Virus record (IMG/VR): IMGVR_UViG_3300012979_000003
Location: 36,254-100,253 of that record
Strand: one strand, 5' to 3'
Length of the DNA: 64,000 bases
Origin: a virus
Taxonomy: Duplodnaviria; Caudoviricetes
The position numbers and the translations under genes are program-made. Within the stretch, counting starts at the first letter, position 1; every line of letters starts with the position of its first letter. The notes under the pieces were generated by a model, which had not been told where the DNA came from, did no database searches, and saw only the letters and a list, made by a program, of their open reading frames with translations. Shown here one piece after another: positions 16,650 through 64,000 of the stretch.

Positions 16650-18100
16650 TAAATAAAATATTGGGTGGGGTTGGTTCATTCCTCGGTAATTTTGGAGAGA
16701 ACGCTGCACTTGGTTCAAGCATTGGTGGAGCATTTGGACCAATAGGAGGATTAATTGGCGGTGGCGTAGGGCTCATATCCGATTTACTTAATAATGATGA
16801 AGAAGAATAGTTAAAACAGATGCGAAAGCGTGAAAGCAATCTGAAACAGTATGGTGAAAACAGAGCCATGACATAGGCATTACGCGCTGATTGGGTTGCA
16901 AACAGCAATCCTGTGATGGCAGCAAAAGACGGTGGAGAAATACCAGTTTAGGCAATGGTTGCACCTGGAGAAGTCGTTGTCACTGAAGATGGACGTGTTG
17001 TACACGTAAAGGGAAATGGCAACAAAGATAATGTGCCTTGGACCGGCGGGCCTGCCACAGTGTTTGGTAATTTAAAAATGCCAGGCACAAATACAAAGTT
17101 TAAAGATTTTGCCAAAACGCATTATAAAGAAACAAGAGAAAATTCAAATACCGCTGAAGGCACATTAAAGGCTTAGGCAGCGACTGCAAAAATATTAAGC
17201 AACATGTAGAAAAACGTACAGCGATAGTAGAACATTGGGCCAAAAACAGCTGTAGTGACTCCCAAAAATCTGAAAAACATTAAAAACGCGAAAGTTCCGG
17301 CAGCTGAAACAGGTATCGACTATAATACGCTTTTGCAGCAAAACTTGGATATTATGAAGAAAGCTGCAGCAACGGCACAACAAACTATCGATTAGCAAAA
17401 CGAAACTAATTTCAGAACTAGTTTGGCAGATGCAACGCCTGTTAAAACAACAACCCCTATTGTAGGCAGTGAAAGAAAATTTAATTGGAAAAATGTGTTA
17501 AATTCGTTTACAAATGCGGTTCCGGCAATTGGACAAATGGCCATGCTTTACGGTAACGCTCGTGAAAACAACATGGCACCGGATCAAGTTCCTATTAACT
17601 ACAATCGGTTAACACCGGCTGCAATTAGATTGGGATATAACAACACGTACGATTTACTTGGGGGTTTGAATGACGTTAATGACTTAAACCGCACAATGAC
17701 TTATAATGCTAATATGCTAGGGAATAGTTCAGGTGTCAGTACTATGTAGAAAATAGCAGCTCATGCAAAATCATTAGACGCCATGCGTAACGTGCACCAT
17801 GATTACAGTGTTGCGTAGGCAGAAGCGAATAGAGCACTTGGTGATTTTCTACATAAAGCTGGTGCAGAAGATGTTGTTGCTGAAAATTACCAACAGGATT
17901 TGCAAGCTAGAAACAATGCTGCCGCATATAAAGCTAGACAAACCAATAGACGAGATATCGCAAACGCATACGCTAAGATTGGCACAGATATGAAAGGCAA
18001 TGCTAACAATGATGCGTTAATGGCAATATTACAACCATACTTAGCACACGGAATAGATCAGGAAACTCTCGATAGTGTGTTAAGTAAATTAACAGTGTAA
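16646..18100 (+). CDS. Injected cargo protein with N-terminal glycine-zipper segment (TAG-recoded)
   Basis: ATGA overlap; GSSIGGAFGPIGGLIGGGVGLI; fragments 16955, 17423 and 17900 are in frame; position after muzzle. Confidence 0.7.
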
Positions 18101-18103
18101 TCC

Positions 18104-20170
18104 ATGAATAGATATTATGAACCAGTAAGCATTGATTTCTAGAGTACTTATGTACCAATACCTTTTTAGGAATTGGTTACCATAGGTAGAGAGTTAAATG
18201 CTCGTAGAGATGCTGCCGAAAAGCAGTTGCGTGACGCAAATAGAGAATGGGGTAAGTTTTAGACAATGTCTGACGTAGATCGTGCTGCATACAATGAGGA
18301 AACGTTTGATAGAATGAAACCGTTGTTGGATCAGTTCGCATCTGATCCAAATATGATAAAAACTGCAGCTGGACAAGCAGCTATATCCAACCTTATTAAT
18401 AACACAGATTATGGTAAATTGGCTTAGCTTGAGTTAGGCGCGAAAGCGTATGCACAGCGTGCTGAAAACATAGCTAAGTTAGAGGCTGCGGGTAAGTACA
18501 ACAAGGACTGGGATGACGTCAACATGAAGGCGTGGGATACACTGAATCAAGGCGTGGTGGGCTTATCACCCTTGGAGTATAGAAGTGTTGTTGACATAGT
18601 GAAACCGTTCTTGAACGACCTTGGTGAAAAATCATAGCGTACAGGCACAGGATATATTTGGAAAGGTAAAAGTAGAGACATGGTTGAGCATCAAGTACAA
18701 CAAAACATGTCGGCAATATTAAATTCGCCGTTTTCGTAGGCGCACATTCGTTCAATCATGCGTAACAATCCTAGCATGTCTGAAGATGATGCTGTTAAAC
18801 AATACATGCAATAGGTAATGACGGCGTCACATGAATTTGAAACTAGTTCATTGACAGCGGATCCAGTTTATATTCAACAAATGGTAAACGACCGTTATTT
18901 AAATAAGGGAAGTGGTAGTTCGGATAGTTCATCACCGTTGCAAGATTGGATGTCTAGAAATGGTAAAGTTAGTCAAGACACACATGCTGCAAATTTCGAC
19001 GAATTTGCATCAGATGACTACAAAGACATGGCTGCACAACGCAATGCAAATTAGGCAGGAATATTGGCTCGAGCTAAAGAATTACAAGCAGTATTGAATG
19101 ATTCAGCATCTTCCGCAGAGGCAAAAGAGTCAGCTAAACAGCAATTGCAGACACTAGAACAACAATACGTTGAGACAGCAAAACTTGCAGAAGCAGAGGA
19201 CAAGCATGAAATTGTACAAGGGGCTTTAACTAAATACGTTACAGGTTTAAAAGGAATGGGTAACTTCTTTGACGAAAGTAGTCAGTTATGGACTGGTGAA
19301 TATGAAGGTGGTGGTAGCGAAGATAGTCGTAGACACAAATATTCTGCTTTTGCTCTCGATGCTCCGTATACTTCCACAACACAATCTGCAAAGAAAACTC
19401 GCGCAAGGGAATACGGTAACGTATTCGATCTAAATAGTGAGAAATACAATGAAGGTTGGTTTAAAGATGACAATAAATACTCAAATTCTGATGTTGATGA
19501 CTTGTTTAATCATGTTGCTAACGTTGTAATGATACCTTCTGAAAATGGAAACGTTAAGGCTGTTGAAGAGTATCTTTTCAAAAATCTTACAAATTATGGA
19601 GGAGATCAAAGCGGTTATGATTTACCTAGTAAATTTAGAATAAAGTCTACTGCGCAGTTCCTTGGCGAATATGATCCAATGCTAAAAGAATAGGCAAACT
19701 CTGCTGGGATTAATCTAGATCTATTGCGGCGTGATGACTTTCCTATACCGCAGTGGTTAAATGGAAATGGTGATGGTAAGATAAGTGGCGCTAAGGTACA
19801 CGACATAGTAGGTCTAAACTTTAGTACAGATTTACACAACCGCAGACAGGTTGATATTCTGATGAACGTTGACGTTCCTTTATCTGAAATAGAAAGACTG
19901 TCTGGTTCGTGGACAAGCGACGAAGATGATTTGCGCGAACTTCATTTTCAAATAGTTGGCGGTGTTGGGGAAGGTGCTGAAAAATACGTTAGAGTGCCAG
20001 TAGTTACTACAAGACCATACGATGTTAACTTTAGTTCGTTTGTAAATCCCACATACCAACATCAGGTAAACATGCCGTCAACAGCAATTCGCGATAATGA
20101 AGCATACCGCAGTTTGTTAGAATACATGGCTTATGGAATATCTCCAGCCGATCAATATGTAAACAATTAA
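18104..20170 (+). CDS. Cargo protein upstream of virion RNAP (TAG-recoded)
   Basis: MNRYYEPVSIDF(Q)STYVPIPF(Q)EL start; fragments 18818, 19064 and 19724 are in frame; TAA at 20170. Confidence 0.7.
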
Positions 20171-35100: not shown

Positions 35101-36284
35101 TACGTGCGGATGGTTTTGTTGACGGTGACGGTAAGATACAATCGTTATTGAACAACAACGAGAATCTTTTTGCATCAATCCAACAGCTGTTGCGGTCGCG
35201 TAATACCAAACTTGATTCAAAATACGCATCAGCATTCGGTATAAGTCAAAAGGAAGATAAAGAATCAATTACATTCTCAAATGTACCTATCGTATTCAAC
35301 CAGAATACGACATTTGATCAACTGGCTAATGAGAATGGTGAATTACCTGCGCAATTCGCATCATCTAGGTGGACACCACCGTATGCTACATATGCAGCAA
35401 TTGATTCAGCAGATAATGTAGTACTAGTGTATTCGGCTGATTCTGGCGCAGTACAAGATTTGGTTGACTACGCTCAGTATAGAAACAAGCCATTTACTGT
35501 TGTAAATCCTGAAGACAAAGGTAAACTAAATATAGACGGTCTCGTTACTATTTTGGGTACTGATGATGTGGGCGTACTTAAAAATGTGATGTCTAGATTA
35601 CCAAAATCAACTGAATATGTAGCATCTTCTGAATTTGGTACTGGTCTCGGATATATGATTGAACGAGGGGAAGTAAAAGGATTTACATACTATCCTGGCG
35701 AAAAGCCTAAAAACAGCCAACAAGGTGTGATTAGTCAAAAACGATACACTAGAGAGACAACAAAGGCAGACAACACTGGACTTTACATATTTACTGACAA
35801 CACTGATAGAAACAGCGGGTCTGAATTAATTCCTGCAAGTAGTTGGTACGCTAAAAAATATGGTCAAAACAAACATCATCCGGGTGAAACCACAGCGCAA
35901 ATCAGAGGTTTGCAAAACGCCTACCCAGTTAGTACGCAACGTTATTTTAATGACAGTGCTAAAGGTGCTACTGGCAGATGGTCAGATGCTGATATTGACG
36001 AATTTAAGTTGGTAATCGATGATGAATTTGAAGATATATTTAACGCGTGGGATTCAGGAAAATATACACACATTGTGTTACCTGTTGGAGACGGATTCTT
36101 TAATGCACCAATATCGCAGATAACCCAATAGAGAACACCAAAATTATACCAGTATTTGCAGCAAAAAGTGTAGGAATTAAAAGCTTATGTTGGGGATGAT
36201 GTAAATGACGATTTGAATCAAAGTCAGTCAATTGTCGACCAACATTAGAACAACAAGGGTGAAAGACCTAGTGATAAATGTTAA
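20172..36284 (+). CDS. Giant virion RNA polymerase polyprotein (~5370 aa, >30 recoded TAGs)
   Basis: About 20 ORF-track fragments from 20778 to 34506 are all in one frame, interrupted only by TAG. Catalytic TGADFDIDKMFL (DFDID at 32922-32936) is preceded by AYRVPTQG; zincin HEAFH at 28104-28118. Confidence 0.88.
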
Positions 36285-50413: not shown

Positions 50414-52270
50414 TTAAAATAGACTTAGTTGTTTATTCTTTAATTGAGCAATAATCTTGTTTGCTTCTGCAATGTAATACCGATAGTTTATTTTAGGGTC
50501 TTCTTTGAGGTCGTCAAAGTTATTTAACAAAGTTACACCAGATGCAGTAAGCATGTTCTGATATTTCTTTTCCCCGTTATCTTCAATCTTCCATTTGTAT
50601 AGGAAGTAACCATCGGTTGATGCATAAAATCGGTTGGTTCGTTGTTGTTTGATGTCGTTATATTCTACTGTCCACTGTTTACCTGTTTTCTCAGACATTA
50701 AGAAATCTTTAATGTCTGTACAGTTTTTAATGTAATCCTGAGGTTTAACGCCTTCTGTGAAATACTTTATAACAGCTTTCGGTATTATTTTAGGAGTTAA
50801 TCCTTTACCTAACACAACATCTGTAATAAAACAACCTTTTTCTTTTATCTTACCATTTTCATATACACCAAAATAGTCATTGATTGCTAATTGGTAGAAT
50901 GCCTTAAATCTGTCTTCTTCTAGCACAAGACCGGTAAGTTCTTGCCAGTCTTTGAATATCGTTTGTATTTTAGGGTAGATATCCTTTTTACACTTAAAGA
51001 AGACACCATCAGTGTTAATCTGAATGATTTGAGCACCTACTTTAATTAACTTTTCAGTTAACATAAGTAATAGCAATTGACCATTTATACGAATACCCAT
51101 TACAGCATAAGGGTCATAACACCAGCTGTATTCATTTTGTAGATTACCTGATAATCCGTTCAATGCGTACTTTAAAGTTTCATTTGTCACATCATCTTTG
51201 GCTTTCTTTGCAGCTAATCTTCGCACTCTAATATCCTCGTATGTTATCTTGAATTCTGGACCCAAGTGTTTAGGGTAGAAGTCAAAATTTAATAACATAC
51301 TTGGATATAGAGATGCTACATCAGCGTCTATGAGTAATTCGTCCTCTGCAGGAATTATAATTTCTGGTTCGTTTATTGAATGAATACCACCGACACCAAC
51401 TGAGTACGTCAGGTTTTGCATAAGAAATTTCTTCTCATATCCTTTTCGTCCCGGTGATACCACTAGTGATTTCATTTCTTCCAGCAATTCTTGCAAAATT
51501 GGGGTGTCGTATTTTATGAAAGGTAAAATGACTTTGTCCAAGATTATAGTATCTGCTGGGGAGCGTAAGTTTTTTAATACGTTCCAGCTAATACCTGTTT
51601 TACGCATATATTCTTCTGCAAGAATCTGCATACCTACATTGACTTTGTCTACGCTTAGACAGTCAATTTTGTAGATATTTCCAATATCAATACGTAATTT
51701 GAGTAAGTCTTCACATCTCTTTAGAAGCTCATATGTTGACATTACGTCATTTACGTTGTAGGCAATCATTTCATCAATCTCATTTAGAGCTAATGGTGCT
51801 TGCCAGTCGACATTGAATTCTTGGACATTTTTATACATCATTGTTACTTGCATTTCTTTGAGAGATACTCGCAATGCTTTACTATACAACATTGTGAGTA
51901 AATCTACTGTTAGGAAGTTTTTTGTATACTTCCATTTCTTCCACAGGTGTAAGTTATCATCTTCTTTTTCAGTGATTACTTTAGACATGTTGAAGAGTGA
52001 CGTACATATTTTGTCGTACGTATAGTTAGAATTGGAGAAGTAATCAATACAATAGTTTACGATAGGGTTATCATAGTGAATATTGTTGTATCCGACAAAG
52101 TATCCATCAACTGTTAAAAAGAAAATACACATTTCTTCTATTGTATTTCTACGCTGGGAACATTCGAATTTATATAAATCGTTTGTTTCAGTGTTTAATA
52201 TACAGCAATGGAATACGTTTTTGAATACCTCAATATCGTATACGTAAGCTACTTTATCTTTTATTCTCAT
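50414..52270 (-). CDS. DNA polymerase, family B
   Basis: Exo motifs YDIE and GYNNIHYD; pol motifs DADVASLYPS, KYALNGLSG, INTDG. Start moved to MRIKDK because the upstream extension is a tRNA-like RNA. Confidence 0.9.
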   Translation of the reverse strand: MRIKDKVAYVYDIEVFKNVFHCCILNTETNDLYKFECSQRRNTIEEMCIFFLTVDGYFVGYNNIHYDNPIVNYCIDYFSNSNYTYDKICTSLFNMSKVITEKEDDNLHLWKKWKYTKNFLTVDLLTMLYSKALRVSLKEMQVTMMYKNVQEFNVDWQAPLALNEIDEMIAYNVNDVMSTYELLKRCEDLLKLRIDIGNIYKIDCLSVDKVNVGMQILAEEYMRKTGISWNVLKNLRSPADTIILDKVILPFIKYDTPILQELLEEMKSLVVSPGRKGYEKKFLMQNLTYSVGVGGIHSINEPEIIIPAEDELLIDADVASLYPSMLLNFDFYPKHLGPEFKITYEDIRVRRLAAKKAKDDVTNETLKYALNGLSGNLQNEYSWCYDPYAVMGIRINGQLLLLMLTEKLIKVGAQIIQINTDGVFFKCKKDIYPKIQTIFKDWQELTGLVLEEDRFKAFYQLAINDYFGVYENGKIKEKGCFITDVVLGKGLTPKIIPKAVIKYFTEGVKPQDYIKNCTDIKDFLMSEKTGKQWTVEYNDIKQQRTNRFYASTDGYFLYKWKIEDNGEKKYQNMLTASGVTLLNNFDDLKEDPKINYRYYIAEANKIIAQLKNKQLSLF

Positions 52271-52285
52271 ATTCTTAAGTTTATT

Positions 52286-52333
52286 GTTCCGTTGGGAGAC
52301 TTGAACTCCCTGAAGGCCTAACCTTAACGGTAC
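52286..52333 (-). ncRNA. Minimal tRNA-like element (acceptor + T arm)
   Basis: GUACCGUU/AACGGAAC stem, GGGAG-UUCAAGU-CUCCC T arm, and one small hairpin in place of the D and anticodon arms. Confidence 0.6.
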
Positions 52334-52360
52334 CACTATAAAAAGATGGCTTATTTGTTG

Positions 52361-53995: not shown

Positions 53996-54385
53996 TTATT
54001 TTCCATAATTTAGTACCTTTTCCTTAAATTCTTTAAAAGTATCAGAATAAGAATACCATTTAAGTTCTTCAGTAGAATCATTAGATAAATAATCTTTAAG
54101 TTCTTGTAAAGAATCGAACCATTCAATACTATTATATAGCCCATCCATGAGTTCTTGTACTTCGTCTAGGGTATCACATGCTTGTAAAGCATCACAACCA
54201 CTACAGCTTCCCCAACCAAAAACAAGAAGTCCATATTTATTATCGTTTTTATAGATTAGAAAACTGTCACCTTGATAAGCTTCTTCATCTACTTGAATAA
54301 GTATTTCTCCAAATTCATCTAACATAGGTTGATAGTCATACCAAGAAAATATATCATTTTCGTATATTTCTTTTGCTTTTTTCAT
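53996..54385 (-). CDS. Hypothetical protein with GSCSGCD motif
   Basis: MKKAKEIY start; GWGSCSGCDAL. Confidence 0.7.
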   Translation of the reverse strand: MKKAKEIYENDIFSWYDYQPMLDEFGEILIQVDEEAYQGDSFLIYKNDNKYGLLVFGWGSCSGCDALQACDTLDEVQELMDGLYNSIEWFDSLQELKDYLSNDSTEELKWYSYSDTFKEFKEKVLNYGK

Positions 54386-54411
54386 AATTATTAAGTTTAA
54401 AGTTAATACTG

Positions 54412-54480
54412 TGCCCAGGTTGGGAGTCGAACCCACGAGTTTTATAGCTTCATTGCTTTTTAACTATCCGATACAAGGGC
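54412..54480 (-). ncRNA. Degenerate tRNA-like element
   Basis: GCCC../..GGGC-A acceptor, UGGG-UUCGACU-CCCA T arm, no canonical D or anticodon arms. Confidence 0.55.
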
Positions 54481-54485
54481 GTGTG

Positions 54486-54581
54486 ATATCCGTTTCATAC
54501 ATCATCCACGGATATTATAGTTGAACAATACTTTAGTAACATTCTTATTGTCATCTGCTGTTTCATACATCATTCACAACA
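54486..54581 (-). repeat. Two tandem hairpins with near-identical GRAUGAUGUAUGAA loops
   Basis: 54486-54515 (AUAUCCGU/ACGGAUAU stem) and 54556-54581 (UGUUGU/ACAGCA stem). Confidence 0.65.
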
Positions 54582-54672
54582 TCTTATCGTCATTCAATTA
54601 CCATTGTAGAGTAATCAGTTTCTTTTTAAGTGTCCATAAGTTCACATCAAACTTAAACTTATTGGAAATTGA

Positions 54673-55203
54673 TTATCGGGGCAATTCGTCAACGTAGATT
54701 TGTACTGGAATTGCTCCTCCCCCAAGATCAATGGCTGCCATGCCAGCTGCTCGGGTTCTAATTGTCGAGGATCTTTCTTGTACGGCTTCCTTGTCTTCCG
54801 TCTTTATATACTTAGAGGCATAATAACCTCCTTTGAAACCAAACATATTAGTTGCAAACAATGCATCAACTACATAATCGTAGTCTTTACCTTGAATTGC
54901 TTTTTCGATAATCTCTTCGGATATACCTTTGAAGATCTTATCATTCTTGTTACTTCCGTGTCCGGACATAACGCTGGCTATACGGAATGCTACTTCCATG
55001 AAGGTAATAGTTTTACCATTTCCTCCAAATAGCCAGTTAATGAACCAGTTACGACTACGTTGAATCAATACAGACCCATCATCCTGTATTGTAATAGTCG
55101 GAGCTACCTTCTCGTTATCCAAGAGAAACTCGCGACGAATTGCTTCGTCCTTGAAAAGTGCCAAAAGAAGCACTTTACGAGATTCACTTATCAATGATAC
55201 CAT
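54673..55203 (-). CDS. Hypothetical protein
   Basis: 176-aa ORF. Confidence 0.75.
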   Translation of the reverse strand: MVSLISESRKVLLLALFKDEAIRREFLLDNEKVAPTITIQDDGSVLIQRSRNWFINWLFGGNGKTITFMEVAFRIASVMSGHGSNKNDKIFKGISEEIIEKAIQGKDYDYVVDALFATNMFGFKGGYYASKYIKTEDKEAVQERSSTIRTRAAGMAAIDLGGGAIPVQIYVDELPR

Positions 55204-55210
55204 GCACTAA

Positions 55211-55771
55211 TTAAGGCTTGCGGTCCAATGACTTGTAGTAACGCTCACAGTTGAACTTCTCGTTCTCGTTGATAGTGCGAAGAGCACCGCTCCATTCAAC
55301 AAGCTGCTTGCTGAGGCTATCGATGTCCTCCATAACTTGCTTGTTGTAGGCAGTAACTACGTCTACCAACTCCTTGTAGTCGGTGAAGAAGATGTTTGAA
55401 TCGGGGTTCTTAATTGCTTCCTCAACCTTGTCTGAGGTCGCCTTCTCAAACTTAGGCGCAGTAATCGGGAACTGCAAAGATGCCTTGTGGTTGAACTCTA
55501 CGACAGGCTTGCCGTTTGCGTTGGTCTTGATTTCCATTGAGATAATCTCAACGTCCTCAACATAGTACTTCTTGAACGGGCGTGCAAGACGCGGATGTGT
55601 GTCATTGAGTACCTTTTCGTTGTGGCTCAAGTCCAGGTTATCACTCTTGATCGCAAAGATCTTCTTACCAAAATAGGGAGCAAATGCTTCCAATGAAGCT
55701 CGGTGGGCGTTGATGTCGAAGCCCAAATTATTGTTATTGTTCATAATTATATTCTCTTTTGATTTCGCCAT
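55211..55771 (-). CDS. Hypothetical protein (codon usage suggests high expression)
   Basis: 186-aa ORF with AAG/AAC/UUC/AUC-biased codons. Confidence 0.75.
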   Translation of the reverse strand: MAKSKENIIMNNNNNLGFDINAHRASLEAFAPYFGKKIFAIKSDNLDLSHNEKVLNDTHPRLARPFKKYYVEDVEIISMEIKTNANGKPVVEFNHKASLQFPITAPKFEKATSDKVEEAIKNPDSNIFFTDYKELVDVVTAYNKQVMEDIDSLSKQLVEWSGALRTINENEKFNCERYYKSLDRKP

Positions 55772-57912
55772 TGATTGTACCGACGAATATGTTAATTACT
55801 AAAGTTAAAACTCACTTTTGTTCCTGATATTGGTGTCAAAATAATAAGTGGGGTGTCTTTGTGTAGGTATTATGGCAAGACGGTATATACGGAATTGGTG
55901 AATTCAATCACTACCATTCACAAAGATTATACTAAATGTGTATCTGACAATATCTGAAACGATTTGAAATTGCTAACAAAAGCCAGTCACTTAGGCTTCG
56001 CTTTAAGAAAGCTATGAAAACATGTTAGCGGGAATGACTCAATACGTAGTAATACACAGAATTGTGTATACGGGATCCCAACGGTAGGGATAGCTGCGCC
56101 CATAAGTATTGTAGAATGTTTGTTATCGAGTGTTTCCACACACGGATGCAAGCTTTGATGCTTATTCCTGCATTCTAGGTTTTCCTGCTTTCGAGAGGAG
56201 TCCGGTAGTTATCGTGATACGCACGGTAGGAATTCTATATTTTGATGTCCTACGCACCCTAAATAAAACAGCCCATTGCTTATAGCATGGCCCACTGTTA
56301 CCATTCCTGGATTTGTTGTTTATACAGCGCGAATACTCGGGATTTCCACCCGATCGTCAGATTAACGGCTAATGAGACCGTCCTGTTTCCGATTCAGCGT
56401 TCTTCCTCCTTAACACGTATAGTTGCGGCTATACGCTTTCAGTATGAGAAAAGTGTCTAATGTCAGCGTAACGGTTGGCTGTCGGGGGTGGAGGCTATAC
56501 TACTTTGGAATAATGGCAGTTACAGGTGGGTAACTCCTTCTTTAGTTCATCGTAATACAGTCCATTGGACTTCCCCTATTATTAAGGTTAGTAATGTTAA
56601 CAATCTCTATTTTTTACGTGTAAACCACGGCAATCAGTTAGCTTACTGCTGGCACAGGCGGGAGCGTCTGCAAGGATTCCCACGTGCATCCACATGGCGA
56701 ACCAGTCTACCCGTAACTAGCTATCTGCAGTGGAGTATGCAGACTAGTCATTAAATGCTCGTTTGGTTTCTTTCTTTAGTCACCCAGTGAAAGAGCTGGA
56801 TATTTTACTTTACATTCTGCCTTATATCAGTCGGCATTTGTCAGAAATAGGTTACAGCGCCTTCGACCGCTATTCCCCCACATTCATTTCCTCGTTGCAA
56901 AGCACTCGCGGATTTATAGTCGTACTGTGGGTACTTGACGACTTTACAAAAGTAACTACTTGATTCTAATGCTGCTTCTTGGAGAAACAGGTGGCATTGC
57001 AGCCATTCTTATACTGGACATTGCTACTCAGCCATAAGGCACGCAATTTACTAATTGAGTCAACACAAGCACTCAGTTACAACTCATCAACATGCTTGCT
57101 ATCAATCAACGGAGATATTTCTTCTTTCCCGCATTACGTATGGGTTTGGCACCCAATCCAGGATAACCTATAGTATAAGCATAGCTATAGTTCTTTTGTT
57201 CGACCTTTATATATCGCCTTCATCCGTACAGGTTACTTCAGTTAGCGATAAAACACTATCGAGATATTTTTTGAAGGTTTTGGAGACCTTCGGAGACACG
57301 CTAGTCGGTGTATAAGGATAATTCTCTACATCTTGAATGGTTTTGGAGACCATTCTCCATGCATGAATACGGCTGTTGGCGACTCGTGTAGACAGTATCT
57401 CCTCTCTTGATTTCGCTTATAAACACCTACGGAGGACTGTCGGGTTAGTTGTACATCTATGCCGCGTATATTTGTACATTATCGATACCCTTGCTTTGTT
57501 CATCTAATATACTGTAACTACTACATGTTGGATGCTTAGAGACAGTAAGCACCGCGTGTTTCATCTACTTCGGTATACTTCAACGCGTCTTCAGTAATAA
57601 TAACATCGCCAATTCGGTTCTCATGTTAGTATCACCACGGGTTAAGCACGCTCTCCCGTTTTCTACTTAATTTTTCTGTCAAAAATGCCAATGACATAAG
57701 TAGTTATCATGGTTTATTCAGGGCCTCTAATTGGCTTTCTATTGGAGATAGTTACCTGGTTTCAACCATCATGTATGCATTTTCACATTCTACGACTAGC
57801 TAAGTCCCAGTAAAATGTTGTAGCATTTACGTTGCCCTACGACTTTTTGCGTGTTGAATAAAGATACTAATTTAAGTATAGTGCGTACAAATGCACTATA
57901 CTTAATATGTCT
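55772..57912 (-). ncRNA. Large (~2.1 kb) structured non-coding region, candidate giant ncRNA or ncRNA cluster
   Basis: No credible ORF on the coding strand; dense inverted repeats throughout. Confidence 0.6.
57872..57905. other. Long perfect hairpin at the boundary of the non-coding region
   Basis: TTAAGTATAGTGC / GCACTATACTTAA, 13 bp. Confidence 0.7.
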
Positions 57913-58239
57913 TTAATCAATAGGCACGCTTGCTATAGATTTTGCAAGGTGTTCCTCTACAGGAATAAATGGAGATTTCATTTGTAGGGGAATACGTCGC
58001 ACGGCCTTAGCTGCCCATAATTCATCTCTAACCGGAGTTATGATGTTGACAGTACGTACAAGTGTATCTGTCTTCATGACAATCCTTTTATCGATGATTG
58101 TGTTAGTAACTGTGTCCCGTATAAATATAGGAACTGTTTCAGTCTCTGCCTTAGCGGTACTGGATAATGTCGACTGTAATCCAATAAATCCGCCGATTGC
58201 CATCACAATGATGAAGCTAAATAATTTTGTTTTTCTCAT
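57913..58239 (-). CDS. Hypothetical membrane/secreted protein
   Basis: N-terminal signal/TM segment MRKTKLFSFIIVMAIGGFIGL. Confidence 0.7.
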   Translation of the reverse strand: MRKTKLFSFIIVMAIGGFIGLQSTLSSTAKAETETVPIFIRDTVTNTIIDKRIVMKTDTLVRTVNIITPVRDELWAAKAVRRIPLQMKSPFIPVEEHLAKSIASVPID

Positions 58240-58250
58240 CTTTTGATAAG

Positions 58251-60011
58251 TTATTTGCTGTACGAACTCATGTCGGCATACTTGGCAATACGCTCAAGGT
58301 TGCTGTTATAGAACGGGGCAAGCTTCTTTACGATGTCCTTAGCGATGGACTCTGAGTTACTGTACTGCTTTGAGATTGTATCGAGGATCAATGATCCGTT
58401 AATGTTGCAGTCAGTAAGGTATTTCAGCTTACGTTCCAGCTTAGTTCCATTACAGATCGCATCGATTACTGTACTGGGAACATTTGCGAGTTGTTCGTAC
58501 CCTTGTTCGGTTTGGTATTTGTCAATTTCTTCTTCGGTGAACTTTACGTTTGACTTTCCTGCAGCAAGGTTCTTTCCTGCAATGTAGCGCAAGTGGCTTG
58601 CATACAGTACTTTGATGATATTTGATACCTCTTCGTCAGTATAGTTCGTGAAGGTATAGTTGGGACCAAGAATTGCATGAGCGGTCAACAAGTTGTTATA
58701 GGTATTGGTAATACCCCACACTCTACCACTGGCACCGGCTAATGAAAGCGGACGTGCTTCATTCTTGTACAACTTTTCAAACATAACTGCCAGAATCTGA
58801 GAAGGTGAGTCTTTCTCAAGACCAAATGCCTTTCTTGCCCATTCGATTCCGTTGTAGATGTTCACAGTCATCTGATCCTTACCTTCCTTCTTTGTCTGCT
58901 TGGTACCGGGTTGCGACAAAATGGCGCGAAGGATCTTCAGCTTTTCTTCAAGTGGAAGTGCTGCATCAGGTTCAGGGAACGTCTTCTCTTCACTCTTTGC
59001 TACTTCCTTTGCAACTTCCTCTACGGCAGTTACATCAGCGTCAATTGACTCTTTTACATCTTCAGGGATGTCGAATTCGAGACGCATCTGACCGTCATTA
59101 CCACGAGGCAATGCGCGTGCAGTTACGCCCCAACAGTCTTCCAACAATGTTACAAGTACAGGACCAACTTTGTCGTCAAGTCTTACGCCAAGGATTTCCT
59201 CACCTTCCTTCATAATCTGATTATGCAGGAACAGGCAATTCATTGCCATACCTTCGTTGAAAATCTTTGCGTATGCTGCACGTTGCTCTGCTGGAATATC
59301 TGCAGTCTTATCGAGATACTCTGACTTAATCATACCCAAGAACTCAACCTGCTTGTCGGCAGACATTCGGTCTCCCTTCAAGGTTTCGTGGATGGCTGCA
59401 GAGATGTTGCGAATCTTGGTTTGTTTCGGGTCAATGATCTCTGCCGTCTTGGTAGTTTCAACTTTCTTTGAATCCATCGGCTTCTTGGTTTCTTCAGTCT
59501 TAGTTTCAGTTTTTGTCTCTTCGACAACAACTGCTTCCTCGATGTTAGCATTTTTGTCAACTTTCTTTTCAGGTTCTTTTTCAGACTCCTTCTTGGCTTC
59601 CTTCTTAGCCTCTTTAGCAGCTTTCTTTTCTGCCTTCTTGGCTTCATATTCAGCCTTCTGACGAGCCTTCTTTTCTTCCTTAGTCTCCTTCTTTGTTTCT
59701 TTTTCAGGAGCCTTGTCGGCAGGCTTGTCTTCGGGGCTAGTGCCAATGCCAAGTTGGTGATCTACGGCAGCTTCTGCGGGTTTTTCCTGTTCAGCAGGTT
59801 TTTCTGCGGGAGCTGTCTCCTCAGTCTTTGTGTTATCTACTTGAGCCTGAGCTTCAGCTTTAGCAGCCTCCTCATTCTCTTTCTTTGCGATTTCTTCAGA
59901 GCTGAGTGTTTCTGTGCTCTTAGCAGCCTCAGTAGTTTTTACTGTTGCTTTCTTAGCAGACTTCTGAGCAAGTGTCTGCAATGCTCTTTCTTTATGTTTA
60001 TTCTTTGCCAT
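58251..60011 (-). CDS. Large hypothetical protein with K/E/A-rich disordered N-terminus
   Basis: MAKNKHK start; EAKKAEKKAAKEAKKEAKKE low-complexity region then a globular C-terminal half. Confidence 0.8.
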   Translation of the reverse strand: MAKNKHKERALQTLAQKSAKKATVKTTEAAKSTETLSSEEIAKKENEEAAKAEAQAQVDNTKTEETAPAEKPAEQEKPAEAAVDHQLGIGTSPEDKPADKAPEKETKKETKEEKKARQKAEYEAKKAEKKAAKEAKKEAKKESEKEPEKKVDKNANIEEAVVVEETKTETKTEETKKPMDSKKVETTKTAEIIDPKQTKIRNISAAIHETLKGDRMSADKQVEFLGMIKSEYLDKTADIPAEQRAAYAKIFNEGMAMNCLFLHNQIMKEGEEILGVRLDDKVGPVLVTLLEDCWGVTARALPRGNDGQMRLEFDIPEDVKESIDADVTAVEEVAKEVAKSEEKTFPEPDAALPLEEKLKILRAILSQPGTKQTKKEGKDQMTVNIYNGIEWARKAFGLEKDSPSQILAVMFEKLYKNEARPLSLAGASGRVWGITNTYNNLLTAHAILGPNYTFTNYTDEEVSNIIKVLYASHLRYIAGKNLAAGKSNVKFTEEEIDKYQTEQGYEQLANVPSTVIDAICNGTKLERKLKYLTDCNINGSLILDTISKQYSNSESIAKDIVKKLAPFYNSNLERIAKYADMSSYSK

Positions 60012-60482: not shown

Positions 60483-61034
60483 TTAATTTACTGATTCGTA
60501 CATTTTGCGTAAGTGCTGTCTTGCTTTATTGAGGTCACTTTTTACGGTGATTTCATTAGAGCCAAGCAACTCAGCAATTTGTTTATACGATTTACCTTCG
60601 ATGCGGTAAGTAAGTACTTCTCTATACTTCTTTTTCATTCTTGGAATTAGTCCTAATACTATTTTGAGTTTTTCTGATGCTAACATGGCTTCTTCTGGGC
60701 CATTATCAGTTCCTCTAACCTGGATGAATGAATTATCGTCATCGATATAAGCATTGAGATTTTCTTTCTTAGTTCTCCTAATATAGTCTATTGCACTATT
60801 GGTAGCTATTGTTTTTAGCCACATTTTCAGAGAAATGTTATCAACGAAGGTTTCTCGTTTGTACCATGCTTTAGTAAACACGATAGATGTGATGTCGTCA
60901 GCAGCATCTTTGTTTTTTACGACAAAAAATGCTGCATTGTAGACGATATCTTTGTATTTGTGATAGAGCGTATTGAACGCTTTTTCACTGCCTTGTTTTA
61001 CTTGCTCTATTAAAGTTTTTTCATTATCTTCCAT
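60483..61034 (-). CDS. ECF-type sigma-70 family RNA polymerase sigma factor
   Basis: AFNTLYHKY, DAADDITSIVFTKAW, LKMWLKTIATNSAIDYIRR (region 2); GKSYKQIAELLGSNEITVKSDLNKARQHL (region 4). Confidence 0.9.
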   Translation of the reverse strand: MEDNEKTLIEQVKQGSEKAFNTLYHKYKDIVYNAAFFVVKNKDAADDITSIVFTKAWYKRETFVDNISLKMWLKTIATNSAIDYIRRTKKENLNAYIDDDNSFIQVRGTDNGPEEAMLASEKLKIVLGLIPRMKKKYREVLTYRIEGKSYKQIAELLGSNEITVKSDLNKARQHLRKMYESVN

Positions 61035-62851: not shown

Positions 62852-62926
62852 TGGTGACAACAATTGGATTCGAACCAATAACTCAACTTAGTTGGGTTGT
62901 GATGTTACCATTACATCCATGTTGTC
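62852..62926 (-). tRNA. tRNA-like gene with encoded CCA and non-canonical anticodon arm (identity undetermined)
   Basis: GACAACA/UGUUGUC-A-CCA acceptor, GAUG/CAUC D arm, AUUGG-UUCGAAU-CCAAU T arm; anticodon region CAACCCAACUAAGUUGAGUU does not give a 7-nt U33 loop. Confidence 0.7.
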
Positions 62927-63274: not shown

Positions 63275-63880
63275 ATGCAAAAATACAAATGTGGTAGAAA
63301 GTTAGTCACGGTAATTTGTGATTACTGTGGATGTGAGGTTGAAAAACCGTTATCTGAAGTTAATAGAAATCGTAAATTAAATCGTCATTTGTTTTGTTCA
63401 CGATCGTGTGCGATGAAGTTTTTGAACAAAAATCGTACACAAGCAATGGATGAATATGCAAATTCGGAAAAGAATAAACAATTTTTAGCAAATCTCAATA
63501 ATACTTATTATGAGAGATATCCAGAAAAAGTGTTTTCTTATTTTTTACGTAACTGTAGAAAAAGGTATAAAGAGTGCACTTTAACTCTTCTCGATTTACA
63601 AGAGCAATGGGATAGGCAAAATGGTATTTGTCCGTATAGCGGGATAAAATTAAATATTCCAACGTATACTAAAAACCATAAAGATCCAATTCATAATGCT
63701 TCTGTAGATCGCATTGATAGTACTAAAGGATATGTTCCTGGAAATATTCAATTTGTTTCTACATGTATAAATTATATGAAAAACACAATGTCTGATTCAG
63801 ATACACGATTGATGTGTAAACATATCGCTGAATATTTCTATTCAGAAGGGACTATATCATCACCTTGCATTGCTGCTTAA
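63275..63880 (+). CDS. Intron-encoded HNH-type homing endonuclease, antisense to its intron
   Basis: CDYCG..FCSRSC zinc finger; CPYSG..NASVDRIDSTKGYVPGNIQFVSTCINYMKN. Confidence 0.85.
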   Translation: MQKYKCGRKLVTVICDYCGCEVEKPLSEVNRNRKLNRHLFCSRSCAMKFLNKNRTQAMDEYANSEKNKQFLANLNNTYYERYPEKVFSYFLRNCRKRYKECTLTLLDLQEQWDRQNGICPYSGIKLNIPTYTKNHKDPIHNASVDRIDSTKGYVPGNIQFVSTCINYMKNTMSDSDTRLMCKHIAEYFYSEGTISSPCIAA

Positions 63881-64000
63881 GGTGTCGGACGCTCTTGCTG
63901 GTTATTAAGGAAACTATATTCCTCCAGTAGTCTCTGCACTTTCTTAGAGTGTACTCTAAGCTTAGCTCAGGATTGGCATGTAAAAATGTCATTTCTGAGC

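Follow-up and report, generated by a model that had tools for sequence, protein, structure and literature searches.

A conserved, intricately folded candidate non-coding RNA element in the early gene region of Suoliviridae phages

The phage analyzed here has a complete genome of 100,253 bp with terminal repeats (IMG/VR record IMGVR_UViG_3300012979_000003). Unless stated otherwise, coordinates refer to the window, the stretch of 64,000 nucleotides that we analyzed (positions 36,254 to 100,253 of the record). In this window, a block of genes running on the minus strand from an ECF-type sigma factor to a family-B DNA polymerase encloses a region without open reading frames, which is flanked by two small genes and lies about 3.4 kb upstream of the polymerase gene, within the replication/early module (Table 1). 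The element contained in it is single-copy in the genome, and its GC content is 0.41-0.46, compared to 0.32-0.36 in nearby minus-strand genes. The structured body starts near 57904 and ends near 55960; leader and control region of the downstream gene occupy the final ~190 nt. The neighboring proteins gave no informative match in searches of Pfam, PHROGs, a protein atlas and PDB profiles, or in Foldseek searches with AlphaFold models, and none of those examined has a recognizable RNA-binding fold; the 186-aa protein comprises a β-rich domain and a long C-terminal helix, with no fold match.

Table 1. Genes and structural features at the locus (window coordinates; features of the element in 5' to 3' order of the minus strand)
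Feature	Position	Strand	Remarks
ECF-type sigma factor	60483-61034	-	Pfam Sigma70_r2/r4
Upstream neighbor gene, 108 aa	57913-58239	-	No known family; outside the RNA
ORF-free region	55772-57912	-	Between the 108-aa and 186-aa genes
5'-terminal hairpin, 12 bp	57873-57904	-	6 compensated pairs (window lineage); directly after the stop codon of the upstream gene
5' module (model R2)	57471-57675	-	Hairpin 57637-57659 with GAGAGCGUG loop; invariant AUGAGAACCG block
Twin hairpins	57335-57355 and 57273-57291	-	Identical CUCCAAA loops; compensated pairs
Middle sub-domain	57122-57223	-	GCCAA-loop hairpin 57141-57155; weak partial match of model R3
Two stacked helices, variable region	56714-56750	-	5 compensated pairs
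12-bp hairpin, variable region	56675-56703	-	6 compensated pairs
Core (model R1)	56264-56489	-	Multi-helix junction; long-range closing helix GACAG...CUGU; GCCAACCG junction strand
Core, GNRA hairpin	56415-56436	-	8-bp stem; invariant GCAA tetraloop
Core, T-loop-like hairpin	56338-56352	-	CGGG-UGGAAAU-CCCG
Core, 3' hairpin	56265-56300	-
3' domain, hairpins	56049-56071, 56127-56144, 56150-56163	-	First hairpin 8 bp; domain 56049-56260; window-lineage covariation
3' domain, mid-range helices	56255-56272 with 56093-56118	-	Window-lineage covariation
3'-edge element	55897-55960	-	Direct repeats UUUCAGAUA and UUGUCAGAUA (55941-55959); UUAGUA; 15-mer GTGATTGAATTCACC (55897-55911)
Downstream neighbor gene, 186 aa	55211-55771	-	Syntenic across Suoliviridae; 25-32% identity
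Family-B DNA polymerase	50414-52336	-	PHROG 1252

An earlier, sequence-only reading of this DNA had found no minus-strand ORF that reaches 60 codons. This held under genetic code table 11, where the longest minus-strand ORF has 54 aa, and for any single stop reassignment: with TAG read as Q, TGA as W or TAA as Q, no minus-strand frame exceeded 120 aa and, on either strand, there was nothing beyond about 200 aa and nothing contiguous. A stop-codon-recoded protein gene was therefore rejected, as single reassignments of TAG, TGA and TAA open no gene. The homologous gaps described below also have no long sense ORF, their longest stop-free sense stretches being 51-85 codons.

Known RNA families do not account for the region either. 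As had been proposed, we scanned it with cmscan and Rfam 15: the window at gathering thresholds gave no match within 55772-57912, a scan of positions 55400-58300 at E<=1 with lax filters gave none, and neither did the homologous gaps of three further Suoliviridae loci (L003, L126, L128). The Rfam models for GOLLD, ROOL, OLE, HEARO and raiA thus remained unmatched in the region, and ARAGORN and the Rfam tRNA model found no tRNA in it, and hence no tRNA gene array. In agreement with the earlier observation that group I and group II signatures are missing, a group I intron was rejected, there being no Rfam match to the Intron_gpI core (P3-P9) and the flanking ORFs being complete with their own stop and start codons. 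A group II intron was rejected because the Intron_gpII and group-II-D1D4 models (domain V/VI) were unmatched at E<=1.

Elsewhere in the genome, Rfam did match a group I intron at 63828-64000 on the minus strand (54.6 bits, E 4e-11), which is truncated by the end of the window; the gene that it probably interrupts would be located at the genome's right end. ARAGORN reported a 75-nt tRNA with undetermined anticodon ('tRNA-???') at 62852-62926 on the minus strand, which may be a suppressor tRNA for stop-codon reassignment. The late block on the plus strand (~11000-41000, e.g. 18098-19054) contains many TTG-start ORF fragments under table 11, and the longest stretch that seems free of ORFs (genome positions 54351-55307) disappears when TAG is read as a sense codon; judging from this, the late genes are probably amber-reassigned.

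In blastn searches against annotated phages, the window shared only a core of ~210 nt with seven Loutivirinae genomes, each of which has an unannotated syntenic gap of 2109-2152 nt. Using the DNA polymerase as a starting point, we found a gap of 2037-2514 nt with conserved gene order in seven genomes of other subfamilies, cr6_1 (Bearivirinae), cr10_1, cr1_1 and cr50_1 (Boorivirinae), and cr272_1, cr131_1 and cr7_1 (Oafivirinae), which come from human, pig and macaque. All 14 of 14 annotated Suoliviridae genomes, representing four subfamilies, thus carry an ORF-free gap of 2037-2514 nt at the equivalent position between sigma factor and DNA polymerase. The window shares this family trait: its syntenic gap, within the range of 2.0-2.5 kb, follows the sigma-factor cassette and precedes the two small genes ahead of the polymerase. 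In IMG/VR, a pattern scan followed by a nucleotide profile identified the element at about 85 loci, of which 65 are full-length (2053-2220 nt); the remaining 31 hits of the pattern fell by chance into GC-rich coding DNA.

The RNA core of the window is 82-88% identical to that of the other subfamilies over ~80 nt. Core and DNA polymerase gene are the sole nucleotide-level similarities across subfamilies in the 12-kb neighborhood, where the immediate neighbors of the element are 24-32% identical or undetectable. A nucleotide profile built without the window additionally matched its 5' module (nhmmer, E 6e-9), and no module was found alone or elsewhere in the genomes searched. We found no earlier description of the element in the literature searched, including the searchable descriptions of Suoliviridae genomes, and in public records the region is blank or has ORFs called antisense to it. 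The antisense 'hypothetical proteins' of 145-160 aa in the records of cr109_1 (L003:3795-4232), cr113_1 (L005:3795-4232) and cr7_1 (L132:3428-3910) are probably spurious.

By its DNA polymerase, the window is closest to cr6_1 of the Bearivirinae (65%). The Loutivirinae core model, however, scores 120 bits against the window and 63 bits against the core of cr6_1, and an exact 14-mer at the 3' edge is common to the window and Loutivirinae only. These conflicting affinities suggest a mosaic ancestry for this part of the genome.

To compare the element across subfamilies, we used covariance models. Model R1, which describes the core with 271 positions and 56 pairs, was built from Loutivirinae sequences only, with the window excluded; it nevertheless matched the window over its full length (120 bits, E 2e-31), with compensatory changes in the closing helix, the GNRA hairpin, the T-loop-like hairpin and the 3' hairpin. 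It also matched six of seven gaps from other subfamilies (E 2e-15 to 2e-9). Across subfamilies, 92% of cells are paired and both sides have changed in 37 of the 56 pairs, compared to 18 +/- 2.8 in shuffles, none of 500 of which reached this value, and 5-16 in controls with slid partners. The long-range closing helix covaries across subfamilies in each of its five pairs; in the core, 24 of 62 pairs are compensated and two U·G pairs are invariant.

Model R2, for the 5' module and likewise built without the window, matched the window (40 bits, E 3e-8) and five gaps from other subfamilies, with 91% of cells paired and 12 of 26 pairs changed on both sides (0/500 shuffles; slid controls 0-2). Beyond Loutivirinae, R1 finds the core in three further subfamilies, and R2 reaches all four. 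The middle domain is the most conserved part within Loutivirinae, and its window-free model R3 gave weak, partial matches at the syntenic places in the window (14 bits, E 0.009) and in cr10_1 (E 3e-5). Its GCCAA-loop hairpin has, relative to the family, a fully exchanged stem and the same loop, which bears out across subfamilies the TGGGT/ACCCA stem picked out in the sequence-only reading. In the window, the anchors of R2, R3 and R1 follow each other in the order of the family, with similar spacing and on the gene-sense strand.

Within Loutivirinae, an RNAalifold consensus of 16 representatives contains 423 pairs, of which 128 have changed on both sides, compared to 17-28 when the partners are slid. 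For a held-out test, a structure inferred from 10 sequences of one clade was evaluated on 6 sequences from a different clade, with a mixed result. In the held-out clade, 79% of cells pair (controls about 40%), as do 75% of double-changed cells (controls 37-50%), but only 46% of all changed cells, which is near the controls (about 40%). At the level of helices, 21 (121 pairs), distributed over the whole length, pass the test, with pairing preserved in 235 of their 250 changed cells and in 200 of their 206 double changes; 15 more show no variation, and 30 fail, mostly long-range ones or ones in poorly aligned variable stretches. The passing helices are all local or mid-range and bridge at most about 290 nt. 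The global long-range pairings proposed by RNAalifold failed on the held-out sequences and were dropped. The local and mid-range architecture is solid, whereas the global fold, and with it the reading as a single molecule, is tentative.

The Loutivirinae RNAs, otherwise collinear, differ by entire hairpins of 24-72 nt, which occur in some and are missing from others at fixed insertion points (alignment columns 183-206, 404-475, 605-673, 760-790 and 903-970). These optional peripheral hairpins could help to define a minimal functional RNA.

For the window's own lineage, we compared five sequences from three sub-lineages, which are 78-84% identical over the whole gap. The contigs were reached through the 186-aa protein; searches of IMG/VR with a window-specific DNA pattern or a protein pattern found no closer relatives. 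This comparison yielded 96 compensated pairs (9-14 in slid controls) and 38 supported helices between 57904 and 55827. In a fold computed from the window only (628 pairs), 138 of 169 double changes still pair, compared to 33-46 of 84-105 in slid controls; 50% of all changed cells pair, which is near the controls (34-45%), and one-sided changes do no better than controls. Fold-energy z-scores are modest (-1.5 and -2.7). The collection of homologues and the covariation analysis that the sequence-only reading had called for thus revealed strong compensatory change at three levels, within Loutivirinae, across subfamilies and in the window lineage.

The region had been described as filled with hairpins, based on short stems that are unremarkable by themselves and gain their reality from covariation. 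Most of them recur among the supported helices: ATACAC/GTGTAT is the first hairpin of the 3' domain (56049-56071), TCGGG/CCCGA the T-loop-like hairpin (56338-56352), CGTATAG/CTATACG the GNRA-capped hairpin (56415-56436) and CTAG/TCTGCA the two stacked helices (56714-56750), while the 13-bp hairpin given as 57872-57905 is confirmed with 12 bp at 57873-57904. Three stems, AGTCGT/ACGACT, CTATAG/CTATAG and CGCGT/ACGCG, are absent from these helices. The 57873-57904 hairpin is not followed by a U-run on the minus strand and has a terminator-like tail on the plus strand only. In the family, the twin hairpins have an equivalent with a YUCCAAM loop (Loutivirinae alignment columns 679-697).

The 3'-edge element is a conserved block, with TTATCAGA repeats in the family, and may be either a control region of the downstream genes or the 3' end of the RNA. 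Its 14-mer GTGATTGAATTCAC was rejected as a recurrent promoter, being unique in the window; there is one copy per Loutivirinae locus, always at this edge.

Several features point to a tertiary-folded RNA on the gene-sense (minus) strand. The GCAA tetraloop is invariant in all subfamilies, on a fully covarying 8-bp stem; other loops (UGGAA, UGAAA, UUGAA) fit the T-loop pattern U-N-N-R-A; and two U·G pairs of the core are invariant, as mentioned above. Of the unpaired positions, 44% are A, as are 200 of the 345 unpaired columns that are invariant; such a wealth of invariant unpaired adenosines usually marks RNAs with a tertiary fold. In the window, the YCCAA motif is present in four hairpin loops and again in the core junction. 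Strand-neutral counts of G·U versus A·C exceptions, in four designs that were symmetric or too weak to fix the strand, showed no excess of G·U. Further, the held-out procedure validated 18 helices on the opposite strand compared to 21, those validated solely on the reverse strand being invariant long-range pairings or the same helices extended by a terminal A·C. The assignment to a strand therefore rests on the loop motifs, the adenosine bias and the gene orientation.

In contigs from four metatranscriptomic runs, the region and its flanking genes are covered alike and at low depth, possibly from phage DNA. Scans of the region for sigma-70 promoters and intrinsic terminators performed no better than on shuffled sequences.

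We conclude that 55772-57912 is a conserved, intricately folded candidate non-coding RNA element outside the known RNA families. The sequence-only reading had proposed one very large structured RNA or an array of them, longer than GOLLD and ROOL, and synteny, constant length, covariation and the negative Rfam searches all speak for this. With a probability of roughly 0.7, the locus encodes, as one gene or as closely linked domains, a multi-domain structured non-coding RNA of about 1.9-2.0 kb on the minus strand. The RNA would be read together with the early/replication gene block and, by analogy with the long non-coding RNAs of phage phi14:2, might be transcribed early and accumulate. Its fold might allow it to act in trans, serving as scaffold or decoy, in the form of a ribonucleoprotein with a phage or host partner or of an RNA-only assembly, for which the recurrent YCCAA loops and the conserved adenosine-rich junctions could serve as contact sites. 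The sequence-only reading had considered the upstream cassette of sigma factor, membrane protein and large K/E-rich protein as a possible source of partner proteins; these neighbors are barely conserved (24-32% identical or undetectable), and no RNA-binding fold was recognized among the neighbors examined. Throughout the family, the 5' module and the junction core have been conserved, whereas divergence has made the flanking proteins nearly unrecognizable. A bolder version, which we hold tentatively and at somewhat less than even odds, is that of one molecule of ~2 kb with about 40-50 helices, early and abundant in every member of the family, which would be the largest structured non-ribosomal RNA known from a phage or bacterium and a fold-based machine, as a ribonucleoprotein or of RNA only, that seizes or shields a host process. 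In that case it would represent a new class on a par with, and unrelated to, GOLLD and ROOL.

It is rather unlikely, by our estimate, that the gap instead harbors an array of independent smaller structured RNAs of roughly 100-300 nt each, processed from it or transcribed within it. Such an array would fit the limited span of the held-out-validated helices and the failure of long-range pairings, as well as the separation of the conserved modules (5' module, middle sub-domain and core) by variable stretches that gain and lose hairpins; phi14:2, moreover, has two separate abundant intergenic transcripts. Against an array, four subfamilies share total length and module order, internal promoter- or terminator-like signals do not exceed chance, and modules never occur alone or elsewhere in the genomes searched.

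We regard a cis-acting replication element, either an origin formed by single-stranded DNA hairpins or a transcript priming replication through an R-loop, as improbable. The location in the replication/early module upstream of the polymerase gene would suit an origin, as would the direct repeats and the near-palindromic, invariant 15-mer at the 3' edge, and the symmetric G·U/A·C exceptions and the similar success of both strands in the helix test would be expected if both strands paired. The element also resembles the ColE1 RNA II and T4 oriF/oriG transcripts in being a structured sequence of a replication module in which folding matters. These transcripts are a few hundred nt long, with few hairpins and no conserved tertiary motifs. 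GC skew, in contrast, does not support an origin at the element: its cumulative extremes coincide with the strand switches at about 8 and 77 kb of the genome and not with 92-94 kb. Hairpins in DNA would also leave unexplained the 200 invariant unpaired adenosines on one strand, the GNRA and T-loop-like loops and the junction strands, and 2 kb with about 40 conserved helices far exceed the needs of any origin known to us. A long structured leader or insulator that controls the downstream replication genes in cis (through attenuation, processing or stability) would agree with the orientation of the flanking genes, the lack of an evident terminator before the 186-aa gene and the conserved control-like block and 5'-UTR hairpin ahead of the downstream start codon, but is very improbable given that the most conserved modules lie 0.5-1.9 kb from this start, that the element is more conserved than the genes it would regulate and that we know of no cis-regulatory RNA near this size.

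Among known large RNAs, GOLLD and ROOL, which are about 800 and 580 nt long, respectively, resemble the candidate RNA of about 2 kb. Like it, these are large, intricately folded non-coding RNAs of phages and prophages with multi-helix junctions, have no known biochemical function and often have tRNA genes nearby, as do several Suoliviridae loci; the Suoliviridae element is about 2.5-3.5 times longer, however, and does not match their Rfam models at E<=1. GOLLD and ROOL belong to the large ornate RNAs and have been studied by cryo-EM (PMC12286853). A homo-oligomeric, RNA-only cage is characteristic of them. The group I and II introns of crAss-like phages are likewise large structured RNAs and common in these genomes, but the element lies between two complete genes, has no intron ORF and shows no domain V-like or P7/P3 signatures.

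The closest precedent is provided by the early long non-coding RNAs of the crAss-like Cellulophaga phage phi14:2. This phage has a stretch of ~1.7 kb without credible ORFs (NC_021806, 2905-4601) upstream of its replication genes and in gene direction; the eight short ORFs once annotated there were withdrawn in 2020. Its long intergenic regions are transcribed early, persistently and abundantly, above most genes, in the direction of the genes (Drobysheva et al., bioRxiv 10.1101/2020.03.07.982082). phi14:2 belongs to a different family, Steigviridae, and expression is documented for its RNAs, while it is predicted for the Suoliviridae element; structural or covariation analyses of the phi14:2 RNAs, on the other hand, do not seem to have been published. 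Searches with R1, with filters off, found nothing meaningful in the phi14:2 region and whole genome, nor in the genome of crAss001. Homology of the element to the non-coding region of phi14:2 is thus not detectable by this model.

If the element is a single RNA, it would raise the upper size of ornate structured RNAs about threefold. A further benefit would be a conserved, alignable and covariation-rich target for cryo-EM, chemical probing and genetics, of which about 85 or more natural variants are available. The core model marks the family precisely, and the region should be annotated as non-coding RNA in its genomes. Suoliviridae rank among the commonest phages in the guts of humans and animals, and the element bears on a question raised by the one crAss-like phage studied by transcriptomics, namely which role its abundant early long non-coding RNAs have. 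RNAs of this kind may have evolved independently as a general feature of the early regions of Crassvirales.
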